From UHGV virus genome UHGV-0116607: DNA of 25,764 bases. One strand, 5' to 3'. The notes under the pieces are model-generated. The model did no database searches and was not told the DNA's origin. It was given only the letters and a program-made list of their open reading frames with translations. This DNA is from a virus. Of this stretch, positions 56 to 25,578 are shown in pieces. The position numbers were made by a program, and so were the translations under genes. Each line of letters opens with the position of its first letter. Position 1 is the stretch's first letter.

Positions 56-373
56 ATGGCTAAACGTATGCAAGATAAAGAAAGCATTGCCGGAGTGTCA
101 TGGCTGATAGTCCTTGCTCTGTCATGCTGGGGCGGCCTGGTCCGATACCTTATTGACGTTAAGCAGAACAAAGCCGCCTGGAGCTGGGTCAATGCGCTGG
201 CGCAAATTGCAGTGTCCGGCTTTACCGGTCTTATTGGTGGCCTAATCAGCGTTGAAAGCGGGCTTAGCCTTTACATGATCCTGGTTACTTCTGGTATCAG
301 CGGGGCGATGGGGTCCGTGGCACTGACGTACTTCTGGGAACGACTGACGGGGATGAAGAATGCAAACCAGTGA
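56..373 (+). CDS. Holin (class I-like, three predicted transmembrane segments)
   Basis: 105 aa; GGAGG ribosome-binding site 5-9 nt upstream of ATG; three hydrophobic stretches; N-terminus MAKRM has two in-frame Met separated by Lys-Arg (dual-start-like); sits immediately upstream of and overlaps the endolysin gene. Confidence 0.6.
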   Translation: MAKRMQDKESIAGVSWLIVLALSCWGGLVRYLIDVKQNKAAWSWVNALAQIAVSGFTGLIGGLISVESGLSLYMILVTSGISGAMGSVALTYFWERLTGMKNANQ

Positions 374-800
374 TAAAGGCATTGCCCTGATCAAGCAGTT
401 CGAAGGCTGCAAACTCACCGCCTACCAGGACAGCGTCGGTGTATGGACGATCGGCTATGGCTGGACTCATCCTGTAGACGGGAAACCAATCCGCGCAGGT
501 ATGACGATTAAGCAGGAGACTGCTGAGCGCCTGCTGAAGACCGGACTGGTCAGCTACGAAAGCGATGTGTCCCGCCTGGTAAAAGTTGGCCTGACTCAGG
601 GGCAATTCGATGCCCTGGTATCGTTCACGTACAACCTCGGCGCCCGGTCACTGTCGACATCTACACTGCTGCGAAAACTCAATGCAGGTGATTATGCTGG
701 CGCTGCCGATGAGTTCCTGCGCTGGAATAAAGCTGGCGGTAAAGTCCTGAACGGCCTGACCCGTCGGCGGGAGGCAGAGCGCGCTCTGTTCCTGTCGTGA
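360..800 (+). CDS. Endolysin, T4-type lysozyme (glycoside hydrolase family 24)
   Basis: 146 aa; N-terminal motif FEGCKLTAYQDSVGVWTIGYG with Glu/Asp/Thr spaced as in the T4 lysozyme catalytic triad (E-x8-D-x5-T); start overlaps the holin 3' end. Confidence 0.85.
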   Translation: MQTSDKGIALIKQFEGCKLTAYQDSVGVWTIGYGWTHPVDGKPIRAGMTIKQETAERLLKTGLVSYESDVSRLVKVGLTQGQFDALVSFTYNLGARSLSTSTLLRKLNAGDYAGAADEFLRWNKAGGKVLNGLTRRREAERALFLS

Positions 801-3316: not shown

Positions 3317-4648
3317 ATGGCCGACATTTACCTCCCGACGCTGCATGACGGGCAGTTAAAGGTCTGGTCAGATTCCTGGGAAGGTCAACTGCACGCGGTC
3401 CGGTGTGGTCGCCGCTGGGGTAAGACCTTCATGCTTTCCAGCGCTGCGGTGACCTACGCTACAGCGCCGTTTAAGCGTCCGGGCATGGACATTGAACTCG
3501 GTGGCCGTGTCGGTATCTTCACAGCTGAGTACCGCCAGTATCAGGAGATCTACGACAAGCTCGAAGAAATCCTGCTGCCGCTGAAAAAGAGCTTCAGCCG
3601 GCAGGAAAAGCGCCTGCTGCTGAAGAACGGCGGGAAGATTGACTTCTGGGTCACCAACGACAACAAACTGGCCGGTCGTGGTCGTGAGTACGAAATTATC
3701 CTGATCGATGAGGCGGCGTTTACCAAGTCGCCTGAAATGCTGAAGGAAATCTGGCCGAAGTCGATTAAGCCGACGCTACTGACGACAAAAGGTCGGGCCT
3801 ACGTATTCTCAACGCCTGACGGTGTGGACGAAGAAAACTTCTTCTATGCCATCTGCCATAACAAAGACCTCGGCTTCCATGAGCATCATGCTCCGACGTC
3901 ATCCAACCCCTTCGTTCCTCCTGAGGAACTGGAGAAGGAGAGGGCCAACAACGACCCGCGCGTGTTCCGCCAGGAGTTTCTGGCCGAGTTCGTCGACTGG
4001 TCTGCCGCTTCGCTGTTCGACGTCCGCAAATGGTTCGAGGGTGAAAATCAGGATCAGCCTGTCGATTACCCTGAAATGTGCCAGGCCGTCTTCGCTGTCA
4101 TGGATACCGCCGTCAAAGGTGGATCAGAACATGACGGTACGGCTGTGGTGTATTACGCCGTCGACACCCGGCCCGGCATTCAGCGCCTCACCATTCTCGA
4201 CTGGGATGTGGTGCAGATTGACGGCGCACTGCTGGAGACGTGGATGCCGTCGGTGTTCGACCGCCTCAATGAGCTTTCCGGCCAGTGCGTTGCCATCAAC
4301 GGCAGCCTTGGCGTGTTCATAGAAGACGCCAGCATGGGCAGCATCCTCCTGCAGAAAGGCGAAAGCCTTGGATGGCCGGTCAACAAAATTGAGTCCGCCC
4401 TGACCAGCAAAGGAAAGGACGAACGCGCCATTATGGCCTCCGGTTATCACTACCGCGGGCTGGCGAAAATTTCCCGACACGCCTACGAGAAGACAGCCGT
4501 CTTTAAGGGCGAGACAGCAAACCATCTGCACAAGCAGGTTTCCCGATTCCACCTTGCCGACAAGAAAGCGCATAAGCGCGCCGATGACCTTCTCGATGAT
4601 TACACCTACGGGCTGATCATCGCCTTCGGCAGCGGCGACGCAATCTGA
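3317..4648 (+). CDS. Terminase large subunit (ATPase/nuclease)
   Basis: 443 aa; Walker A-like CGRRWGKT near the N-terminus; Walker B-like YEIILIDEAAF; immediately follows terS. Confidence 0.8.
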   Translation: MADIYLPTLHDGQLKVWSDSWEGQLHAVRCGRRWGKTFMLSSAAVTYATAPFKRPGMDIELGGRVGIFTAEYRQYQEIYDKLEEILLPLKKSFSRQEKRLLLKNGGKIDFWVTNDNKLAGRGREYEIILIDEAAFTKSPEMLKEIWPKSIKPTLLTTKGRAYVFSTPDGVDEENFFYAICHNKDLGFHEHHAPTSSNPFVPPEELEKERANNDPRVFRQEFLAEFVDWSAASLFDVRKWFEGENQDQPVDYPEMCQAVFAVMDTAVKGGSEHDGTAVVYYAVDTRPGIQRLTILDWDVVQIDGALLETWMPSVFDRLNELSGQCVAINGSLGVFIEDASMGSILLQKGESLGWPVNKIESALTSKGKDERAIMASGYHYRGLAKISRHAYEKTAVFKGETANHLHKQVSRFHLADKKAHKRADDLLDDYTYGLIIAFGSGDAI

Positions 4649-9423: not shown

Positions 9424-10455
9424 ATGGCTGCAATTACCCCCAGCTACACCATCGTCAATCCGTCGTACATCGCGCCGGAAATGATCCTCGGTTACCAGCA
9501 GGCATCAGGTGCGTTTGAAACCATCGCCAGCGGTAACCCGCAAGTCCGTCTCGGCGTAGGCGACCAGTACGTCTACATGCGCCGCCTGGATATTCGCACC
9601 CAGACCACTTCCAGCCAGTCCGGTAACGGTAACCAGCTGCCGAGCGTGGCGCTGGATGCGAAGATGATTTCAACCCCAACCTACCTGTTCCGCTGCCGTG
9701 GTATCTACGATCACCATGACATGGCGGCTGCCGGTAACTGGAACTTTGCACTGCCGGAAGCCCAGCGTCTGGGTATGCGTCAGGGCATCTTCCAGCAACT
9801 GCGCTCTGCTCTGCTGTATGGCATGAACCCTGCTGGTGGTGAAGGCCTGCTGAACACCGCTGGCGCGACTACCGAGTCCCTGCCTCCTGACAGCAACAGC
9901 AACACCACCGTGCTAACCTATGACCACGGGCAGATGGCGGTATATCTTCTGGGCCACGTGCAGGCAGCACTGACCCGCACCATGCAGCTGGGTCGCCAGC
10001 AGCGTGTTGTTATCCTGGGGCCGCAGCGCGTCCTCGGTGCCATGGAGATTCAGCAGATCGTTCAGCTGACTTCTTACCAGCGTCCTGGTGGTGGTACTGA
10101 CACCGTCGGCGGCACGGTGAAAGAAGTGCTGAAAGGCGCAAACGTCCAGGTTGACTGGGTGTATGACGATACCTTGATCGGCGCTGGTGCTGGCGGTACC
10201 GATGCGGTGGTGATCACCATCCCTGAGGTCGAAGTGCCGATGGTCAACTCTACCGTGAACACCAACGAATTCGCCAAGCTGACCCCGTCTCTTGCCGCGA
10301 ACGCGCTGATGTTTACCGACATGGCCGCGCCGCGCGAAATCCCGACGCCGATCGCTGGTGGCGCCATCGATGTTCTGTCCGAAATGCGTTCAACCGCAGG
10401 CTGGGCAGTTCGTCCGGAAGCAATCACCATCCTGTCCATGGCGTACAGCGCCTGA
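9424..10455 (+). CDS. Major capsid protein (putative)
   Basis: 343 aa; position after scaffold-like genes; followed immediately by an intrinsic terminator-like hairpin, a common arrangement after highly expressed capsid genes. Confidence 0.5.
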   Translation: MAAITPSYTIVNPSYIAPEMILGYQQASGAFETIASGNPQVRLGVGDQYVYMRRLDIRTQTTSSQSGNGNQLPSVALDAKMISTPTYLFRCRGIYDHHDMAAAGNWNFALPEAQRLGMRQGIFQQLRSALLYGMNPAGGEGLLNTAGATTESLPPDSNSNTTVLTYDHGQMAVYLLGHVQAALTRTMQLGRQQRVVILGPQRVLGAMEIQQIVQLTSYQRPGGGTDTVGGTVKEVLKGANVQVDWVYDDTLIGAGAGGTDAVVITIPEVEVPMVNSTVNTNEFAKLTPSLAANALMFTDMAAPREIPTPIAGGAIDVLSEMRSTAGWAVRPEAITILSMAYSA

Positions 10456-10475
10456 TCCATTCTTTGAAGTGGTTA

Positions 10476-10512
10476 AGCCTCTGCCGGGGAAACTCAGCAG
10501 GGGCTTTTTTAC
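10476..10512 (+). terminator. Intrinsic terminator-like hairpin after the putative major capsid gene
   Basis: AGCCTCTGC-(12 nt loop)-GCAGGGGCT (one mismatch) followed by TTTTTT at 10505-10510. Confidence 0.5.
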
Positions 10513-18135: not shown

Positions 18136-19154
18136 TGCGTTATTACGATATACAGATTTTCGATCCGTCAAAAGACGGAAAATCTGATGTGTTATTGAAG
18201 CAATATAGCAGCCACAAAAATGGAGCTTATAATCCCGGCGCATTAATGATTGAGTTTGACATTCTCAGGTTTGGTGAATCAACCCCACAGGGTGAAACGC
18301 ACCTGACTATATGGGGTATTGGACCGAAAGAAATGCAGCAGGCCAGACAGGACCTTTTCGGTAAAAGAATAAAAATCTTTCTCGGTATGAAGCAAGGTCT
18401 ACCACTAGCTGGGAACTTCAAAGCGCCAGGACTGGTGCTTGATGGTACGATTAATCAGGTTTTTGGTAACTGGCAGGGTACGGATTTAAGGCTGGATTTT
18501 GTGATTGTAACTGGTCCAGTAACGTTAAACCCTGATGAGAAACCAGCACCACTGCCGTTAACGTTTGACTGGAAAGTTGGGCAAAAATTATCTGTCGCCT
18601 TAACTAACTGCTTCCAGTTGATAGGCGGTTATACATTTAATATTAATATTAGTGATCGGCTGGTTCTTAATCATTACAGAGGGCTGTTTTGTCGCGATAT
18701 AGTTTCTCTGGCAAAGGACCTTAATGCCTTTTCTCGCTCATGGATTAAGGACTCAGGTTACACTGGTGTTGAAATGGCCATAGTTAACGGCAATCAAATT
18801 CGAGTCTGGGATAATGATGTCAATTACCATCCTGAAGGTTCAGAAGTTACAAGTATAACCGAGTTGAATTTTACTGATTTAATCGGTCAGCCGACATGGG
18901 TAGCCTTTAAAACCATTAGCCTGATGTGTGTTATGCGCAGTGATATTCAGGTTGGTGACCATATAAGCATGCCTAAAAAAACCGCCCCAGTAATAAGAGC
19001 CTCTTCATATTCTCAGTATCGGGATGATTCCGCTTTTACAGGTGAGTTTGTTGTTAGTTCAGTGCGTCTTATTGGTAATAGTCGGCAGCCAACTGCCGAT
19101 GCATGGGTAACAATTATTGAGGCATATCCATTTGTTAAGGCTGGTGGTAAATGA
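18135..19154 (+). CDS. Baseplate hub-like protein (hypothetical)
   Basis: 339 aa; TAATG overlap with the upstream gene; AT-rich relative to neighbours; located just upstream of the spike gene. Confidence 0.35.
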   Translation: MRYYDIQIFDPSKDGKSDVLLKQYSSHKNGAYNPGALMIEFDILRFGESTPQGETHLTIWGIGPKEMQQARQDLFGKRIKIFLGMKQGLPLAGNFKAPGLVLDGTINQVFGNWQGTDLRLDFVIVTGPVTLNPDEKPAPLPLTFDWKVGQKLSVALTNCFQLIGGYTFNINISDRLVLNHYRGLFCRDIVSLAKDLNAFSRSWIKDSGYTGVEMAIVNGNQIRVWDNDVNYHPEGSEVTSITELNFTDLIGQPTWVAFKTISLMCVMRSDIQVGDHISMPKKTAPVIRASSYSQYRDDSAFTGEFVVSSVRLIGNSRQPTADAWVTIIEAYPFVKAGGK

Positions 19155-19867
19155 GTATCGATCAAAAGCTTAATTTCGGCAGCAGCATGAATCGTTTTGC
19201 TGAAATAAAGGTCGAAGATGCCCTGCAAAAGGCGGGTAAGGTGCTTCCGGCCAGCGTGGTCAAACAGGACGGAAACATGATCACGGTGGCCTTTGAGTTG
19301 CGCGATATCCCTTATGTGCTTCCTCAGGTCACCGTTCCGTTATTTGGTCCGCAGTATATCCGCTATCCCATGCAGCCAGGCGACAAAGGCATTGTTATCC
19401 CGGCAGATACCTACCTTGGTGGTGTTAGCGGGCAGGGTGGCGGCATTGCTGACCTGACGCCGCCGGCGAACCTTAGCGCGCTGGTATTTTTGCCAATCAG
19501 TAATACAGAGTGGGAAGGCGTCGACGGTCAGGTTGTGACCATTTACGGGCCCGAAGGTGTCACCATTCGGGATGCTGGCAGCAACACAACGTTTTTACTT
19601 ACTCCTGACAGCATAACCATCGCCACTCCAACGCAGTTCAAAGTGACCGTAGGGTCAACAGTTTTCACACTTACGGACGGTATGTGGAATCTGACTGGTC
19701 AGGCAGGGAAGTTGCAGGACGGAACAGCCAGCACAAGCCCGGCGATCATGCACGAGGGCTGGAAGTCGCTTGTTTCCTGGTGCAACAGCCATGTTCACTC
19801 CAACGGAAACGGCGGCAGCAATACCGGGAACGCGACAATGCAATTTAACGGGAATATCACTGAATGA
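19151..19867 (+). CDS. Baseplate central spike protein (gpV-like, putative)
   Basis: 238 aa; ATGA overlap; Gly-rich beta-type sequence; C-terminal HVH motif (NSHVHSNGNGG) resembling metal-binding HxH spike tips; followed by W-, J- and I-like genes. Confidence 0.45.
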   Translation: MSIDQKLNFGSSMNRFAEIKVEDALQKAGKVLPASVVKQDGNMITVAFELRDIPYVLPQVTVPLFGPQYIRYPMQPGDKGIVIPADTYLGGVSGQGGGIADLTPPANLSALVFLPISNTEWEGVDGQVVTIYGPEGVTIRDAGSNTTFLLTPDSITIATPTQFKVTVGSTVFTLTDGMWNLTGQAGKLQDGTASTSPAIMHEGWKSLVSWCNSHVHSNGNGGSNTGNATMQFNGNITE

Positions 19868-20196
19868 GAACCTACGGCAGGAATTCAGATGGTAAGTGGA
19901 CTCTGGTCGAAACAGATGAGAATGGATTCAACGACGCGGTTTACCTGACTACTCTGGTGCAAAATCTTAAGCTTGCGCCGCAGGAGTCTCCGTTCTTCGC
20001 GAACAATGGTATTCCGGCTAACGGATCAGTAATACAGCAGGTATTGCCGACGTATTACGTTAACCGTCTGCAACAACAATTTAGTCCCTACTTTTCATCG
20101 CTACAAATTGCTTTGGTTAGTGATGATCCACCTGTTTATAACATTTCGGCGATAACCAACGCCGGTTCTAAAATTATCACAACGGTGAACGTATGA
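19864..20196 (+). CDS. Small baseplate wedge protein (gpW / gp25-like, putative)
   Basis: 110 aa; ATGA overlap; size and position between spike and J-like genes. Confidence 0.4.
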   Translation: MRTYGRNSDGKWTLVETDENGFNDAVYLTTLVQNLKLAPQESPFFANNGIPANGSVIQQVLPTYYVNRLQQQFSPYFSSLQIALVSDDPPVYNISAITNAGSKIITTVNV

Positions 20197-21611
20197 GTGA
20201 TTTGTCCGTTAGCTATGACGCAGCCGGGCCAGTGCCGAAAACATCCGAAGAGCTGCGCGCCGACTTAGTTTCAAGAGCCACAGAATTATCACCAGGCATC
20301 ACTACGGACCTCCCCGGATCACTTATCGAGGATATCGTCGGTACCGATGTTGGCGCGCTACTCATTGCCGATCAGATTCGTGTCGACCTCATCAACTCCG
20401 TAGGCCCGCTGAAAGCCAATATGTACATGCTGAACCTTCTGGCCCAGCAGTCAGGTATCAGCGAACAAAAAACTCAGGGGGCGACAACTGTACCTGTCGT
20501 GTTTGAGGGCCCGGTCGGCTTCGTAGTGTCACAGGGGTTTCTGGTCAGCGATGGCACGTATACCTACCAGATCGCCGATGCGACAGTGGTGCTGTCTTCC
20601 GGTGTCAGTTCGATGGTAACAGCCATTGCAACAAACACTGGTTCGTGGGCTGTACCGGTAGGATCGGTTAATCAGATACTGACCAGCCTGCCGTCTGGCA
20701 TTACTCTGACCTGCACCAACCCGGTTGCTGGCACCCCAGGTGGTGCGCCTGAAACTAACTTCGAATTTCGCGAGCGCGTCTGGGAAGCTCAGATGTCGAC
20801 TGTTCAGGGATATCCAGGCTTTATCCGCCAGAAATTGACAGACCTGAGTAATGTCCAGGCTCGTCTGGTTTCCGTTGTTCAGAGCGGTAATGCCTGGATT
20901 GTTATGTGTGGCGGCGGCGATATCTATGAGATGGCCGGGGCCATTTATAAGTCAGCCGGCGACATCAGCAGGCTAAAAGGGACTGACCTGAACGTCACCG
21001 GGATCACCAATGCGAACCCAGGAGTAGTAACGACCGACATCACGCACGGATTCAGCTCTGGCCAGGTAATTAATATCGCAGGTGTTACCGGCATGAGCGG
21101 GATTAATAACGTCCCTCTCACTATAACCGTGTTAAGTCCACATACTTTCTCAATAGGCATCAATACCACCTCGTCAGGCGCATGGACTGGTGGTGGAATA
21201 GTTACGCCGAACCTGAGGAATAATGTGGTTACGGTCAACGACTGGCCAGATAACTACCTGATACCGTTTGTTATACCATTTCAGCAACTGGTGACTATCA
21301 AGTTTCAGTGGGCAACCGAAAGCGCGAACTACCTGACAGACGCGACAATAGCCTCTCTGGTGACGCAACCGGTAATCAATTATGTAAACGGGATATTCGC
21401 AGGAAAGCCGATGAATATAAATAACGTCAAAGATGTCTTTCTTCAGGCGATTAACAGCACGCTCGATATGAGCCTGATTTCGACACTGAACGTTATTGTT
21501 ACGGTGAATGGTGTAATCACAGGAGTGGATGCCGGAACTAACATTATCAGCGGCGACCCTTACAGTTACTGGTTCATTGCCTCTGACGGGGTTATCGTGG
21601 ACGGGATATAA
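20193..21611 (+). CDS. Baseplate J-like protein with Ig-like insertion (putative)
   Basis: 472 aa; ATGA overlap; position in V-W-J-I order; contains the shared …HGFSSGQVINIAGVTGMSGINN…TFSIG… domain. Confidence 0.45.
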   Translation: MSDLSVSYDAAGPVPKTSEELRADLVSRATELSPGITTDLPGSLIEDIVGTDVGALLIADQIRVDLINSVGPLKANMYMLNLLAQQSGISEQKTQGATTVPVVFEGPVGFVVSQGFLVSDGTYTYQIADATVVLSSGVSSMVTAIATNTGSWAVPVGSVNQILTSLPSGITLTCTNPVAGTPGGAPETNFEFRERVWEAQMSTVQGYPGFIRQKLTDLSNVQARLVSVVQSGNAWIVMCGGGDIYEMAGAIYKSAGDISRLKGTDLNVTGITNANPGVVTTDITHGFSSGQVINIAGVTGMSGINNVPLTITVLSPHTFSIGINTTSSGAWTGGGIVTPNLRNNVVTVNDWPDNYLIPFVIPFQQLVTIKFQWATESANYLTDATIASLVTQPVINYVNGIFAGKPMNINNVKDVFLQAINSTLDMSLISTLNVIVTVNGVITGVDAGTNIISGDPYSYWFIASDGVIVDGI

Positions 21612-21612
21612 T

Positions 21613-22317
21613 ATGCTTGAAGATATCATTAAGTCTTACTTGTATACGCAGTATAACGACGATGATGATCTCCAGGCGTTCGTCACTGCGTATAACTCCA
21701 TGGCCCAGGAAATTTATTCATGGATGATTAACGCCAACCTTCCGATATTTGTCGGAGGGTATAATGCTGGTGACCAGTTAAAATGGATTGCCCGCGGGAT
21801 TTATGGCGTTAAGCCGCCGGTGCTGGTCAGTGGGAAGCGAACCGTTTACGGCCCTTACAACGCCGTCCTGTTCAACCAGTTACCATTCAATGGCAGAAAG
21901 GTAGTTAATCAGTCAGAGCAGGTTGTCGTTTCAGATGATCTTTTTAAGCGCATCATGACGTGGAATTTCTACAAAGGTGATGGGTATTACTTTACCATCC
22001 CATGGTTAAAGCGTCGGATAATGAGATTTCTTACCGGGGTTGATGGCGTTGACGTCGTTAACGATCAGAGGTGGAGTATTTCGGTTCTTTTTTCTGATTC
22101 TGGAGCGAGCATATCGATCATCAAAGGGTACAGGAAACTCACCGATGCCTCCATGTTCAATAACTTTTCCTACAATTCACAGACGCTTAATCAGAAGAAA
22201 AGCCTTCTGATAAAAAGTACGAACTACGAATATGCATCATTGTTCAAACAGGCCTTTGATAGCGGCCTGCTTCATATGCCATTTTATCAGCCTGTTACCG
22301 TAACCATTATCGGCTAG
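21613..22317 (+). CDS. Baseplate / tail-fibre-proximal protein (gpI-like, putative)
   Basis: About 234 aa from ATG 21613 (one nt after the upstream TAA); the ORF track's longer 21529 start would overlap the J-like gene by 83 nt. Confidence 0.4.
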   Translation: MLEDIIKSYLYTQYNDDDDLQAFVTAYNSMAQEIYSWMINANLPIFVGGYNAGDQLKWIARGIYGVKPPVLVSGKRTVYGPYNAVLFNQLPFNGRKVVNQSEQVVVSDDLFKRIMTWNFYKGDGYYFTIPWLKRRIMRFLTGVDGVDVVNDQRWSISVLFSDSGASISIIKGYRKLTDASMFNNFSYNSQTLNQKKSLLIKSTNYEYASLFKQAFDSGLLHMPFYQPVTVTIIG

Positions 22318-22555
22318 AGTTATCCCGGCGATCTATTGCCATGTCAGTGTAATACTTAAGACACTGGCATATAACAAGCAACATGATAATGGTAAAGAAC
22401 AGAGCGGCGCTGAACTTTATATTTTCAAATGGTGGGATTCCTTCCTGAATCCACATGTTGAAGATTAAAGCAATAAGGAAAGCCGAAAGCAAAATTGTTA
22501 TTGCGCTAACTGATGATAAAAGAAATTTTGTAATAGCAACTGACAGATTATTCAT
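22307..22555 (-). CDS. Small hydrophobic membrane protein (82 aa, two predicted transmembrane helices), opposite-strand accessory gene
   Basis: Only clear minus-strand gene outside the invertible segment; markedly AT-rich; GAGAGGG ribosome-binding site before ATG; hydrophobic stretches LLSSVSAITILLSAFLIALIF and ALFFTIIMLLVICQCL; extended -10-like TGgTAAAAT about 30 nt upstream on the minus strand. Confidence 0.5.
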   Translation of the reverse strand: MNNLSVAITKFLLSSVSAITILLSAFLIALIFNMWIQEGIPPFENIKFSAALFFTIIMLLVICQCLKYYTDMAIDRRDNSSR

Positions 22556-22583
22556 TCTGAAGCCCTCTCTAAAGTTTAATTAA

Positions 22584-22592
22584 TTTTACCAC
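22584..22592 (-). promoter_or_regulatory. Extended -10 promoter element (TGgTAAAAT) for the small membrane-protein gene
   Basis: Minus-strand TGGTAAAAT, about 30 nt upstream of the ATG at 22555; no good -35 hexamer, consistent with an extended -10 promoter. Confidence 0.3.
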
Positions 22593-22597
22593 TAAGA

Positions 22598-22621
22598 ACC
22601 CGCCTTGAGCGGGTTTTTTGT
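22598..22621 (+). terminator. Intrinsic terminator immediately upstream of the tail fibre gene
   Basis: ACCCGC-CTTGA-GCGGGT hairpin followed by TTTTTTGTT; about 20 nt before the tail fibre ribosome-binding site (GGAGGA). Confidence 0.55.
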
Positions 22622-22642
22622 TGCCCAAATCCCGGAGGATAA

Positions 22643-23593
22643 ATGGCACTCACACTTTTAGCTGCCAACAATGCGCAGACTGTGCTGGCGGCAGGAATTA
22701 GCGCATCAGCAACTTCTTTGACTGTTAACTCAGGAACCGGATCACTGTTTCCTGCGCCATCAGACGGAGTAAGTTTTTTTAAGTTAACCCTGATTGATGC
22801 GGCAACCGGGCAACTCACCGAAATCATGCATGTAACCGCGCGCACTGGTGACACCATGACGATCGAACGCGGCCAGGAGGGAACGACAGCCCGCGCATGG
22901 TCAGCGAATGATATCGCAGCAAACATGATGACCGCCGGCACTCTTAACTACATCCTGGACAATTTTCAACCCTTAGATGCAACCCTAACGGCATTGGCTG
23001 GGCTGGCAACCGGTGCAAATAAACTCCCGTATTTCACTGGAACTGATACAGCTGCGCAGACTGATTTAACTTCTGTTGGCCGTGACATTATTGGGAAAAA
23101 TACTATTGCTGACATTCTCACATACCTTGGTTTGGGAGAAGGTTCGGCATTACCCGTTGGTGTGCCTGTCCCGTGGCCTTCCGCCACTCCGCCAACAGGC
23201 TGGCTGAAATGCAACGGGGCTGCTTTTTCGGCTGAAGAATACCCGGAACTGGCAAAGGCTTACCCGACAAATAAATTGCCTGATTTACGCGGTGAATTTA
23301 TTCGTGGCTGGGATGACGGACGTGGTGTGGATGCCGGGCGACAATTATTATCTTCACAGGGGGATGCAATAAGAAATATTGAGGGATTCGCAGATGGCGG
23401 GATCGGCATGTCTTTTGATGCAATCAGAGGGGCTTTTTACGATGCAGGAACACGATCAGCGACAATGGCGAATAACACAACTGCTATAGGCAAAACCGAT
23501 GACCTTGGATTCGACGCCTCTCGTGTCGTGCCAACAGCTAATGAAAACCGTCCACGTAACATCGCCTTTAATTATATTGTGAGGGCTGCATAA
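22643..23593 (+). CDS. Tail fibre protein (constant N-terminal part + invertible C-terminal variable part with tail-collar-like domain)
   Basis: 316 aa; GGAGGA ribosome-binding site; C-terminal region has the tail-fibre collar signature (…GWLKCNGAAFSAEEYPELAKAYP…LPDLRGEFIRGWDDGRG…); a hix/gix-like recombination site lies within the coding sequence at 23115-23140. Confidence 0.8.
   Translation: MALTLLAANNAQTVLAAGISASATSLTVNSGTGSLFPAPSDGVSFFKLTLIDAATGQLTEIMHVTARTGDTMTIERGQEGTTARAWSANDIAANMMTAGTLNYILDNFQPLDATLTALAGLATGANKLPYFTGTDTAAQTDLTSVGRDIIGKNTIADILTYLGLGEGSALPVGVPVPWPSATPPTGWLKCNGAAFSAEEYPELAKAYPTNKLPDLRGEFIRGWDDGRGVDAGRQLLSSQGDAIRNIEGFADGGIGMSFDAIRGAFYDAGTRSATMANNTTAIGKTDDLGFDASRVVPTANENRPRNIAFNYIVRAA
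23115..23140. repeat. Left recombination site (hix/gix-like 26-bp site) inside the tail fibre gene
   Basis: TTCTCACATACC-TT-GGTTTGGGAGAA: two 12-bp half-sites around a 2-bp core; 15 bp (23127-23141) is a perfect inverted copy of 24944-24958. Confidence 0.6.
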
Positions 23594-24186
23594 TGAAACC
23601 TGTTTTTGATGAAAATGGGCTGGCTACAGTACCGGGTAATATGCGTTGTTTTTATTATGAGGCAGTTACGTATGAATATACTGGCTGGTCTGATGAATAT
23701 ATTAATACTGGCGTAAGTATGCCCGCCTGTTCCACTGGTATTGACCCGGGCGAATACATTCCGGGAAGAGTGGCAGTATTTACGGGTAAGGGATGGAGCC
23801 ATGAAGAAGACCATCGCAATGAGACTGTTTACTCAACAGAAAATGGCGTAGCTGTTACAGTGGATTATATCGGTGCCATCAAAGACGGTTATGTCACGCT
23901 TTCACCGTTAACGCCATACGATAAATGGGATGGTGAGAAATGGGTGACGGATACCGAGGCACAGCATAGCGCCGCACTAGACGCGGCAGAAGTAAAGCGC
24001 CAGTCGCTGATTGATGCTGCAATGGCTTCCATCAGTCTGATTCAGCTGAAATTACGGGCCGGGCGGAAGCTGACGCAGGCAGAAACCACCCGACTTAACG
24101 CTGTGCTGGATTACATTGACGCGGTGGAGGCAACAGATACCAGCCCCGCGCCTGATGTCATCTGGCCTGAACTGCCGGAGGCGTAG
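23593..24186 (+). CDS. Tail fibre assembly protein (U-like)
   Basis: 197 aa; TAATG overlap with the fibre gene stop; C-terminus …LDYIDAVEATDTSPAPDVIWPELPEA matches the conserved tail-fibre-assembly C-terminal signature. Confidence 0.75.
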   Translation: MKPVFDENGLATVPGNMRCFYYEAVTYEYTGWSDEYINTGVSMPACSTGIDPGEYIPGRVAVFTGKGWSHEEDHRNETVYSTENGVAVTVDYIGAIKDGYVTLSPLTPYDKWDGEKWVTDTEAQHSAALDAAEVKRQSLIDAAMASISLIQLKLRAGRKLTQAETTRLNAVLDYIDAVEATDTSPAPDVIWPELPEA

Positions 24187-24597
24187 GCCATTCAATATCT
24201 GGCGCACTGGAAGTATCGACCAGTTCCAGTGCGCCAGATAATCCAGCCACAAATTATATTGCACCAGTTCCTCACCTTTCAGGCGACCAATCGCCGCTTT
24301 ACCAGGCCATTGCTTACTGTTTATGTATTCGTTGACCTGATTAATCAATTGCTGCTTTTTCAGTTCGGCTGCGGCAATTTGTTCCTCATGAGTTGGCGGT
24401 GGAATATCAATCCATGCAGGCATTCCGTCGATGACACCTCTGTATTTTCCTTCTGGTGCTTCCTTCATAAATTCGGCGGCAACAGTGTCGTCAATTTCGA
24501 TTCCATCATCGGGCCATTCGCCGGATTCCTGATAAGCGATTTTAAGCTCCACAGGGAAAAACGCATTTTTATCGGCACTGAAAATATATTTCTGCAT
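24052..24597 (-). CDS. Alternative tail fibre assembly protein (U'-like); apparent frameshift near the 3' end (possibly a pseudogene or homopolymer sequencing error)
   Basis: ATG at 24597; as read the frame runs to 24052, but the conserved C-terminal signature LELVDTSSAPDIEWPTPP is encoded in a different frame (encoded at about + 24180-24225, stop near 24160); a single missing G/C at about 24234-24235 would restore a product of about 145 aa. Confidence 0.5.
   Translation of the reverse strand: MQKYIFSADKNAFFPVELKIAYQESGEWPDDGIEIDDTVAAEFMKEAPEGKYRGVIDGMPAWIDIPPPTHEEQIAAAELKKQQLINQVNEYINSKQWPGKAAIGRLKGEELVQYNLWLDYLAHWNWSILPVRQILNGLRLRQFRPDDIRRGAGICCLHRVNVIQHSVKSGGFCLRQLPPGP
24196..24240. repeat. 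17-bp perfect inverted repeat with 11-bp spacer at the convergence point of the two tail fibre assembly genes
   Basis: TATCTGGCGCACTGGAA (24196-24212) … TTCCAGTGCGCCAGATA (24224-24240); lies just downstream of the U-like stop and inside the 3' coding region of the minus-strand U'-like gene. Confidence 0.7.
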
Positions 24598-24599
24598 TT

Positions 24600-24958
24600 C
24601 TACCGTCCTATCGAAATATAACTGAATCTGTATTGCTGTGAGATATCACTGGTTGCCACACGCCACGCTGAATTACTGATATGTTCAAAATTTACAGACA
24701 AAACCTGCGGGGCAGGACTCGACGGGTCTGACTGAACGGCATCAGACATAACACTGACTGAAACCATCGGCTGATTAGGGAATGGTATAGGGAAGTGTCC
24801 ACTGATAAAGCGGGTCGTGTTTCCTGAAAAAGTGCCAAACTGAACAATATATCCACCTGGTAGCCTGAACCATCCCGAACCAGAAGCGAATGCTCCCATA
24901 TCCGGTATCTGATTATCTCCTGTGCCCACATCCCTTTTCGCCGCTTCTCCCAAACCAA
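24600..24958 (-). CDS. Promoterless alternative tail fibre C-terminal cassette (S'v-like), expressed only after inversion
   Basis: Minus-strand ORF in frame with the fibre constant region across the recombination site (…GLGE|AAKRDVGTGDNQIPDMGAFASGSGWFRLPGG…); stop 2 nt before the U'-like ATG; no start codon or ribosome-binding site of its own. Confidence 0.6.
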
Positions 24959-24970
24959 CCTTTTTTATAA
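24945..24970. repeat. Right recombination site (hix/gix-like 26-bp site) upstream of the invertase gene
   Basis: TTCTCCCAAACC-AA-CCTTTTTTATAA; from memory closely resembles the hixL-type consensus; inverted relative to the left site. Confidence 0.6.
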
Positions 24971-25000
24971 CCATCAAAAATCTGGTGATGCTTCGCCGTT

Positions 25001-25023
25001 TCTCCTGTTTTCATAACAGGAGA
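25001..25023 (+). promoter_or_regulatory. Hairpin / palindrome covering the invertase ribosome-binding site
   Basis: TCTCCTGTT (25001-25009), loop TTCAT, AACAGGAGA (25015-25023); the 3' arm contains the Shine-Dalgarno AGGAGA, 7 nt upstream of the ATG. Confidence 0.4.
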
Positions 25024-25029
25024 AATCCC

Positions 25030-25578
25030 ATGATTTACGGTTATGCCCGAGTATCAACAAACCACCAGGACACTGAATTGCAACTAACGGCGCTCAAGTC
25101 AGCGGGTTGTGAGAAAATTTTTGAAGAGCATGCCAGCGGGAGGAAATCGAATCGGCCGGTTCTAAAACGGCTGATCGCCACTATGCAGCCGGGGGATGAA
25201 CTGGTGGTCTGGAAGCTGGACAGGATAGGCCGCAACGTTCTGCATGCGCTGTTGATGTTCCAGCAGTTACAGGAAAAGGGTATCAACTTCCGCAGTATTA
25301 CCGATGGCGTGGATCTCAAAACAGCCAGCGGCCGCTATAACTTTCGTAACATCCTTTCCGCAGCACAATATGAATCTGATCTTAATAGCGAACGTACCTT
25401 AGCAGGGCTGGCCGTAGCCAGGGCAAAAGGGCGAGTTGGTGGTCGCAGGCCTAAGTTCACGGATGAGCAATGGCGGGAAATGGGGGAGCGGATGGCAACC
25501 GGTGAATCACGACAAAGCGTATCAAAAACGTATGGAGTAGGGCTCTCAACTCTGTATAAAAAGTTTCCAGCTAGCTGA
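25030..25578 (+). CDS. Site-specific DNA invertase, serine recombinase (Hin/Gin/Pin/Cin family)
   Basis: 182 aa; N-terminus MIYGYARVSTNHQD with the catalytic Ser in the resolvase/invertase motif; C-terminal helix-turn-helix (…SVSKTYGVGLSTLYKKF); adjacent to the invertible segment. Confidence 0.9.
   Translation: MIYGYARVSTNHQDTELQLTALKSAGCEKIFEEHASGRKSNRPVLKRLIATMQPGDELVVWKLDRIGRNVLHALLMFQQLQEKGINFRSITDGVDLKTASGRYNFRNILSAAQYESDLNSERTLAGLAVARAKGRVGGRRPKFTDEQWREMGERMATGESRQSVSKTYGVGLSTLYKKFPAS

Follow-up and report, generated by a model that had tools for sequence, protein, structure and literature searches.

The virus genome UHGV-0116607, a stretch of 25,764 nucleotides (nt) to which we refer throughout as the window, covers the late genes of a prophage. 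The subject of the present analysis is a small gene that lies in it on the minus strand, between a gene of the baseplate module and a tail fibre gene, and that encodes a protein of 82 amino acids (aa) with two hydrophobic helices. The gap between the two flanking genes measures 325 nt and holds the small gene, whose end overlaps that of the baseplate gene tail to tail, so that it terminates 11 nt inside the latter. The features of this junction are the following:

21613-22317, plus strand: left flank, a 234-aa baseplate-module gene (phrog_8212; annotated DUF2612 in Pantoea phage PdC23)
22307-22555, minus strand: the small gene for a membrane protein with two transmembrane (TM) segments, 82 aa, ATG start
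22563-22569, minus strand: Shine-Dalgarno (SD) sequence GAGAGGG, 7 nt upstream of the ATG
22583-22591, minus strand: predicted sigma-70 extended -10 element TGGTAAAAT, with a poor -35
22597-22619, plus strand: intrinsic terminator, stem 22597-22603/22609-22615 (AACCCGC/GCGGGTT), loop CTTGA, T-run to 22619
22643-23593, plus strand: right flank, the tail fibre gene, with ribosome-binding site GGAGG at 22634-22638

A conserved gene on the strand opposite to the late operon

The small open reading frame (ORF) is intact, reads MNNLSVAITKFLL...DRRDNSSR, and is covered by plus-strand genes over 4% of its length, while all other minus-strand ORFs of at least 60 aa upstream of the invertible fibre segment are covered to at least 82%. 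It is the sole uncovered minus-strand ORF of that size before the segment, in agreement with an earlier reading of this DNA (hereafter the original prediction), in which it was singled out as the only convincing minus-strand gene of the late operon. The same reading had described the gene as strongly AT-rich, and its GC content is indeed 36.5% (0.365), whereas the window as a whole stands at 51.9% (0.519) and the flanking genes at 0.44-0.51.

A search of 5.8 billion proteins returned 95 homologous protein clusters with 61-100% identity, nearly all of them of 82 aa or 92-97 aa and all labelled "hypothetical", originating from Enterobacter, Kosakonia, Scandinavium, Citrobacter, and Klebsiella. 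A profile search together with a cluster look-up added homologues from Salmonella (hundreds of contigs), Kluyvera, and Izhakiella, and a later look-up added marine metagenome contigs. Among 1.84 billion representatives, the profile search found 14 members of the family only, and a scan of viral contigs with the family alignment gave 15 loci, mostly known from the other searches; a scan of genome contigs gave at least one locus.

The fetched loci yielded 43 distinct homologous coding sequences, in all of which the frame is intact, down to 38% identity, with the start, the SD sequence and the length conserved. The median pairwise ratio of nonsynonymous to synonymous substitution (dN/dS) of these sequences is 0.18, and no usable pair exceeds 1; in comparison with the gene of the window, the values lie at 0.08-0.17 below synonymous saturation, apart from two outliers at 0.41-0.42. 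These values settle the coding status of the family: judged by its substitution pattern, the small gene is a genuine protein-coding gene under purifying selection. That it might instead be a chance ORF within an AT-rich intergenic spacer, and no gene at all, could be argued from its shortness, from the lack of a database family and from the fact that no function is annotated for it anywhere. However, a frame kept throughout the 43 sequences, a dN/dS of about 0.1-0.2 where synonymous sites are saturated, and the constancy of start, SD sequence and length speak otherwise; the dN/dS values effectively refute the chance-ORF reading, which we regard as extremely improbable.

Topology and conserved residues of the small protein

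Kyte-Doolittle hydropathy over 19 residues gives two peaks, of 2.39 (residues 13-31) and 2.46 (residues 48-66), and the AlphaFold model obtained with 53 sequences is a helical hairpin made of helices 3-38 and 46-81, with a mean confidence score (pLDDT) of 80.5. Both results back the original description of an 82-aa protein with two hydrophobic helices. Averaged over the family, the numbers of lysine plus arginine and of aspartate plus glutamate residues are 1.3 and 0 at the N-terminus, 1.0 and 1.8 in the loop between the helices, and 5.0 and 2.9 in the C-tail. By the positive-inside rule, both ends are predicted to face the cytoplasm (N-in/C-in), leaving 14 residues, M34-K47 (MWIQEGIPPFENIK), as a loop in the periplasm.

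This predicted loop is the most conserved part of the small protein. Residues P41, P42, F43, E44, N45, K47, and F48 are invariant (motif PPFEN.KF), and W35 and G39 are nearly so. A second conserved cluster occupies the juxtamembrane C-tail, where K67, D75, and R77 are invariant and C63 and C65 nearly invariant; the two cysteines form a CxC motif at the predicted cytoplasmic end of the second TM segment, followed by the basic C-tail, to which the longer relatives add a basic C-terminal extension.

Neither the window protein nor 25 members of its family gave a real match in Pfam, PHROGs, NCBIfam, or PADLOC, the hits obtained there being compositional noise from the TM segments. A PDB sequence search returned nothing for the small protein, the profile search of the 1.84 billion representatives gave no link to a known family, and Foldseek found no match with an E value below 0.68 among viral structures, the fold being a generic helical hairpin. 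Megablast against complete E. coli genomes gave no match, and tblastn with three family members against 50,697 GenBank phage records gave none either, in a search whose low-complexity filter may lower sensitivity. Across these searches, the small-protein family stands as uncharacterised and without a database family.

Expression signals

SD-like sites are present in all 39 unique upstream regions of the homologues, which, together with the GAGAGGG of the window, supports the good ribosome-binding site of the original prediction. Further upstream, 24 of the 39 regions have the pattern TGnTAnnnT at a distance of 25-31 nt from the ATG; shuffled sequences averaged 2.0 and reached 8 at most. The -10 hexamers comprise TAAAAT, TAGTAT, TAATAT, TATGAT, TATTAT, TATAAT, TAAGAT, TATCAT, and TACAAT, and in every variant T1, A2, and T6 are kept; one other lineage has TTGACT and AAAAAT separated by a 17-nt spacer. 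A generic -35/-10 promoter scan did not flag the extended -10 of the small gene, because its -35 is poor. The extended -10-like element of the original prediction is thus borne out, although its coordinates (22584-22592) were off by 1 nt, and the gene's own promoter, which remains a predicted one, is backed by the conservation of the element at a fixed distance (24/39 against about 2 expected). This is good comparative evidence, and it suggests a sigma-70 promoter that would need no phage activator.

The slot before the fibre gene

In order to place the small gene among its relatives, we used 80 related loci retrieved from IMG/VR via the neighbouring baseplate protein. The small gene is present in 34 of them, always antisense in the slot between the baseplate and fibre genes. 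The other slots are either empty, measuring 67-69 nt, or occupied by one of several kinds of cargo: plus-strand lipoproteins of 187-256 aa with the lipoboxes LLSGC, LVGC, and IAGC; plus-strand signal-peptide proteins, for example of the FAASFDC..KSFAEKTIC type (Klebsiella phage Chronis gp22); minus-strand signal-peptide proteins of 133-149 aa; and larger inserts with Arc/Mnt-like and antirepressor-like genes. Slots of 2.1-3.0 kb with Arc/Mnt-like ribbon-helix-helix genes and an antirepressor-like gene are found in L022, L025, L028, L037, L056, L058, L070, L073, L078, L090, and L091. Two of these, L056 and L070, contain the small gene together with Arc/Mnt/Ant-like genes, which lie between it and the fibre gene. 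The alternative cargo proteins that were tested are all of unknown function. In RothC (L006), a single 133-aa signal-peptide ORF (MKVIIRLLISLIFSSASVNAFA...) at 3717-4118 on the minus strand spans three annotated tiny ORFs of 31-43 aa.

The isolated phages that share the module, namely Yersinia vB_YenM_29.18, Klebsiella Chronis, RothC, and RothD, and Pantoea PdC23, are devoid of the small gene, which is therefore accessory and not part of the baseplate. The original prediction had taken the gene for an insert and had named, as the finding that would speak against this, its conservation in all relatives as an integral part of the baseplate module; a presence in 34 of 80 loci, and in none of the isolated plaque-forming relatives, sides with the insert. 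A moron, in the Juhala/Hendrix sense, is an independent transcription unit that a phage genome has gained. Two marks of such an element are seen in the small gene, namely a patchy presence at a defined insertion point and a base composition unlike that of its neighbours, and the conserved extended -10 is a candidate for a further one, a promoter that works in the repressed prophage. A downstream terminator of its own was not found within 1 kb on the minus strand, the nearby terminator being on the other strand and upstream of the gene. From its distribution and composition, the small gene is best classified as an accessory gene of the moron type, carried by a lambdoid prophage that has a myovirus tail and, as judged from the variety of cargo, the slot that separates the fibre gene from the last baseplate gene is a moron hotspot.

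The terminator at the right edge of the slot

The plus-strand terminator that the original prediction placed just before the fibre start proved real. Its RNA has a folding free energy of -13.6 kcal/mol (z = -3.3), and the terminator is found in 54 of the 71 related loci with a mapped fibre start, whatever the cargo of the slot and including the empty slots of 67-69 nt. It lies 23 nt from the fibre ATG (22643) and overlaps the -35 region of the small gene's predicted promoter. A simple terminator scan missed the hairpin, presumably because stem extension consumed the T-run, and a separate scan of our own found it. The conserved right edge of the slot consists of the hairpin and T-run, then ATTGCC.AAATCCCGGAGGATAA-ATG; terminator and ribosome-binding-site block take up 22597-22642 in the window, and the junction is found at 4206-4274 in L094 and also in L001, L006, L007, and other loci. 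Stem variants keep their pairing (CCCGC/GCGGG, CCTCGC/GCGGGG, CCCAC/GTGGG, CCGCC/GGCGG, and CCAGC/GCTGG); these compensatory changes were read directly from the sequences, and variable loop length shifts the alignment register of the 5' arm. Since the terminator is kept even in empty slots, it is an element of the baseplate/fibre junction rather than of the small gene, and the idea that it arrived with the small gene was rejected.

The insulating role that the original prediction had given to this terminator, that of shielding the fibre module from late transcription, finds no support. No separate promoter serves the fibre gene, and only a ribosome-binding site lies between the terminator and its ATG, so that late transcription must read through. 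Two further strong plus-strand terminators are located inside the late operon near 1342 (about 1320-1350), after the lysis genes, and near 10503 (about 10475-10510), after a 343-aa gene (9424-10455), which again implies that late transcription reads through terminators. The late-operon terminators fit lambdoid-type antitermination. HK97 and P22 likewise have a terminator just before an essential late gene. The related Yersinia phage vB_YenM_29.18 (L102, OM046621.1) is a lambdoid phage that carries cI, cro, cII, O, P, nin, and RusA genes, and at the lambdoid Q position (18705-19307) it encodes a 200-aa DUF1133 protein that we infer to be an antiterminator. This protein is annotated "class II holin", probably wrongly. 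More plausibly than acting as an insulator, the junction terminator blocks non-antiterminated transcription, that is, transcription at the time of lysogeny, from entering the fibre gene; it could also serve as a landing pad for cargo or as an attenuator of fibre expression.

In Rfam, the region 22100-22800 had sub-threshold matches only. One of these, to isrK (22576-22619, plus strand; 17.2 bits against a gathering score of 50; E = 0.32), covers little beyond the terminator hairpin and was dismissed as a chance match.

Linkage to one tail module

All contexts retrieved via the small protein carry the homologous stretch of genes that extends from the tape measure to the baseplate, and no non-prophage homologues were seen among them. 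Three different slots are used within this module. In the window and in most loci, the gene is antisense between the baseplate and fibre genes; in the marine contigs L018-L020 (L018, 6001-6291), it is in sense orientation, tightly packed between tail genes of 236 aa and 91 aa; and in the Salmonella loci L105-L107 (L105, 10001-10294), it is antisense after the fibre assembly gene, at the end of the operon. In L105, a hairpin resembling the junction terminator is located just upstream of the -10 region of the small gene. An identical 82-aa protein stands beside four different fibres, of 291-408 aa, which ties it to the tail and injection module and not to receptor specificity.

Comparison with known exclusion systems

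As far as gene order goes, the closest architectural match is the setting of P22 sieA. This gene is likewise on the opposite strand, has its own promoter, and converges on the last upstream virion gene. The P22 order (structural gene 16, sieA, mnt, arc, ant, terminator, and the tailspike gene 9) is matched by L056 and L070, in which the small gene is followed by Arc/Mnt/Ant-like genes and the fibre gene. The proteins differ, however: P22 SieA is 162-164 aa long with three predicted TM segments, while the small protein has 82 aa and two, and hhalign detects no similarity between them (probability 0.27%). Furthermore, P22 is a podovirus with ejection proteins, whereas the prophage of the window has a contractile tail and a tape measure.

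T4 Imm comes closest in size (83 aa against 82 aa) and is also a small membrane protein, which, according to its record annotation, leaves superinfecting DNA in the periplasm. Unlike the small prophage gene, it is an early gene of a virulent phage. No similarity to T4 Imm was found with hhalign (probability 0.29%), and the Pfam family Imm_superinfect was not among the matches listed at E <= 10.

In T5 (llp/oad), the exclusion gene adjoins the gene of the receptor-binding protein. The same neighbourhood is seen for the Cor lipoproteins (PMC3594210, PMC11436027), and in relatives of the window prophage the slot likewise holds lipoproteins. T5 Llp and Cor are, however, outer-membrane lipoproteins that mask a receptor, while the small protein is a predicted inner-membrane hairpin with no particular fibre type. 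Exclusion by the Cor lipoproteins of phi80 and N15 is of the receptor-blocking kind.

HK97 gp15 is a small inner-membrane exclusion protein, expressed from the prophage, whose specificity is set by the tail of the incoming phage (PMC3594210). Its gene is likewise an AT-rich insertion (moron) inside a lambdoid tail operon, with a terminator 12 nt before the next tail gene, compared with 23 nt in the window. In contrast to the small-protein family, which is opposite-strand in most loci, gp15 is encoded on the same strand as the tail genes; it has 62 aa and chromosomal YebO homologues, and hhalign detects no similarity of the small protein to gp15 (probability 0.27%).

Other genes of the window

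The remaining genes to which we refer are given below; head and contractile-tail genes fill the window between the lysis cassette and the baseplate genes.

56-373, plus strand: LydA-type holin, at the left end of the window
360-800, plus strand: lysozyme, forming a lysis cassette with the LydA-type holin
20193-21611, plus strand: Baseplate_J-like gene
23593-24186, plus strand: fibre assembly gene
24052-24977, minus strand: invertible segment, with an alternative fibre assembly gene and an alternative fibre C-terminal end
24922-25578, plus strand: Gin/Hin-type DNA invertase, adjoining the invertible fibre segment

Residues 275-338 of the Baseplate_J-like protein match the FCCH domain of ubiquitin-activating enzyme E1 (PF16190, E = 1.3e-14), and this match recurs across all related loci. 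The invertase ORF as listed has a GTG start, with the resolvase domain beginning at residue 38.

A candidate block to the entry of phage DNA

The original prediction had suggested superinfection exclusion, abortive infection, or a toxin-like function for the small protein. This class of function is plausible, and the context favours exclusion. We propose, with a probability of roughly 45%, that the small protein acts in superinfection exclusion at the inner membrane, where it would block the entry of incoming phage DNA. Among the readings considered, this one is the best supported because of the lysogen-type expression signals, the predicted hairpin topology with its conserved periplasmic loop, the location in a slot for envelope proteins, the linkage to one injection module, and the independence from fibre type. 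As we picture it, the promoter would fire without phage activators, so that the small protein would be made in the lysogen, while during lytic growth late transcription, antiterminated and running towards the gene, would probably reduce its expression. Located in the inner membrane, it would then stop the passage of DNA from phages with the same tail and injection machinery, in the manner of P22 SieA, HK97 gp15, and T4 Imm, its periplasmic loop contacting the incoming tail tip or tape-measure conduit or, alternatively, a host inner-membrane factor that the conduit needs.

Several points weigh against this proposal. The small protein has no detectable homology to T4 Imm, HK97 gp15, or P22 SieA (hhalign probabilities of about 0.3%), it matches no entry of Pfam, PHROGs, NCBIfam, PADLOC, or PDB, and its hairpin fold is generic, the fold search having given no significant match. 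Small two-helix membrane proteins have many other roles, and class II holins share the predicted N-in/C-in topology and the charged C-tail. On the minus strand, no hairpin followed by a T-run was found within 1 kb downstream of the small gene. In L018-L020, the homologue is on the same strand as the tail genes and packed among them, which implies late co-expression. Such co-expression would not conflict with exclusion, P22 sieA being likewise upregulated on induction, though a model of expression in the lysogen only does not predict it. Finally, the strict linkage to one tail module could reflect a role in the lytic cycle.

A factor of lysogenic conversion, which would alter the host envelope (O-antigen polymerisation or chain length, stress tolerance, or resistance to colicins or peptides) in a manner unrelated to exclusion, would be served by the same expression logic, with a predicted promoter of its own directed against the late operon. 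Moreover, prophages of this group do carry other conversion genes next to their fibre genes (Acyl_transf_3, SASA, Lipase_GDSL_2, and a GtrB-like Glycos_transf_2 with Glucos_trans_II), and epsilon15 and D3 have small hydrophobic inhibitors of the O-antigen polymerase near their tailspike genes. Yet the family keeps to one tail module although its hosts (Salmonella, Enterobacter, Klebsiella, Citrobacter, Kosakonia, Kluyvera, Izhakiella, and those of the marine contigs) differ greatly in their surface polysaccharides, a factor directed at the host would be expected to reach other types of phage as well, and the identical protein occurs with different fibres. We therefore hold conversion to be unlikely, though it deserves to be kept in mind. 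A role in the lytic cycle specific to this tail type, whether in preventing progeny from ejecting into debris or membranes, in tuning the timing of lysis, or in aiding the assembly of tail or fibre, draws on the strict co-occurrence with one tail module in three slots and on the sense orientation within the tail operon of L018-L020. It has to contend with the antisense orientation and predicted sigma-70-type promoter of most loci, and with the absence of the gene from more than half of the module-bearing loci, from all isolated plaque-forming relatives and, as far as the filtered tblastn search is sensitive, from the 50,697 GenBank phage records; of the functional alternatives, it appears to us the least probable.

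The small protein might also be a holin-like membrane toxin or abortive-infection effector, held in check by an antisense transcript of the late strand ending at 22597-22619, in the manner of a type I toxin-antitoxin system. Two TM helices, the N-in/C-in arrangement and a charged C-tail are predicted features that it shares with class II holins, and the AT-rich gene would be wholly covered by any plus-strand transcript stopping at the terminator. In L011 (1105-1383), an in-frame upstream start (MVKIMNN), seen in this lineage only, recalls the dual-start holins. An antisense arrangement of this sort is, however, lacking in L018 and L105, and in the window the generic scan found no plus-strand promoter-like site in 22318-22597, and no Rfam small RNA reached threshold in 22100-22800. 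The family, with 82-105 aa, exceeds the size of typical type I toxins; its strongest conservation lies in a specific periplasmic loop motif rather than in general hydrophobicity; and a toxin would not readily be expected behind a constitutive extended -10 promoter. No holin family of Pfam was matched, the best hit being for one of 25 members at E = 0.068, and the phage already has a canonical LydA-type holin and lysozyme. That the small gene is itself the holin of the phage was rejected, the lysis cassette lying at 56-800, 21 kb away. A toxin thus seems a distinctly unlikely explanation.

Returning to the inner-membrane block, a more specific and more tentative version of it, to which we give less credence than to exclusion as such, is that the small protein is the founding member of a new family of DNA-entry blockers specific to a tail module. 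Its PPFEN.KF loop would jam the tape-measure/tail-tip conduit of its own lineage, and the terminator-bounded slot would be a hotspot of exclusion cassettes in which inner-membrane, periplasmic, and lipoprotein blockers are swapped.

Implications

Overall, a prophage moron for a small membrane protein, probably one of exclusion, is of a well-known kind; the protein family itself is uncharacterised and has no database family. It is common in prophages of Salmonella and of the Enterobacter group, with hundreds of genome contigs, and thus in Enterobacteriaceae of clinical relevance. If exclusion is its function, it would constitute a new sequence family of injection blockers, acting on a lambdoid lineage with contractile tails for which the present analysis turned up no exclusion protein. 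The short conserved loop would then be a convenient target for mutagenesis, and escape mutants could be used to locate the tail segment that traverses the inner membrane; the family would also matter for predicting the host range of phages and for phage therapy directed at lysogens of Enterobacter, Klebsiella, and Salmonella. Irrespective of what the small protein does, the uncharacterised envelope proteins of the hotspot make up a list of candidates for exclusion screens.

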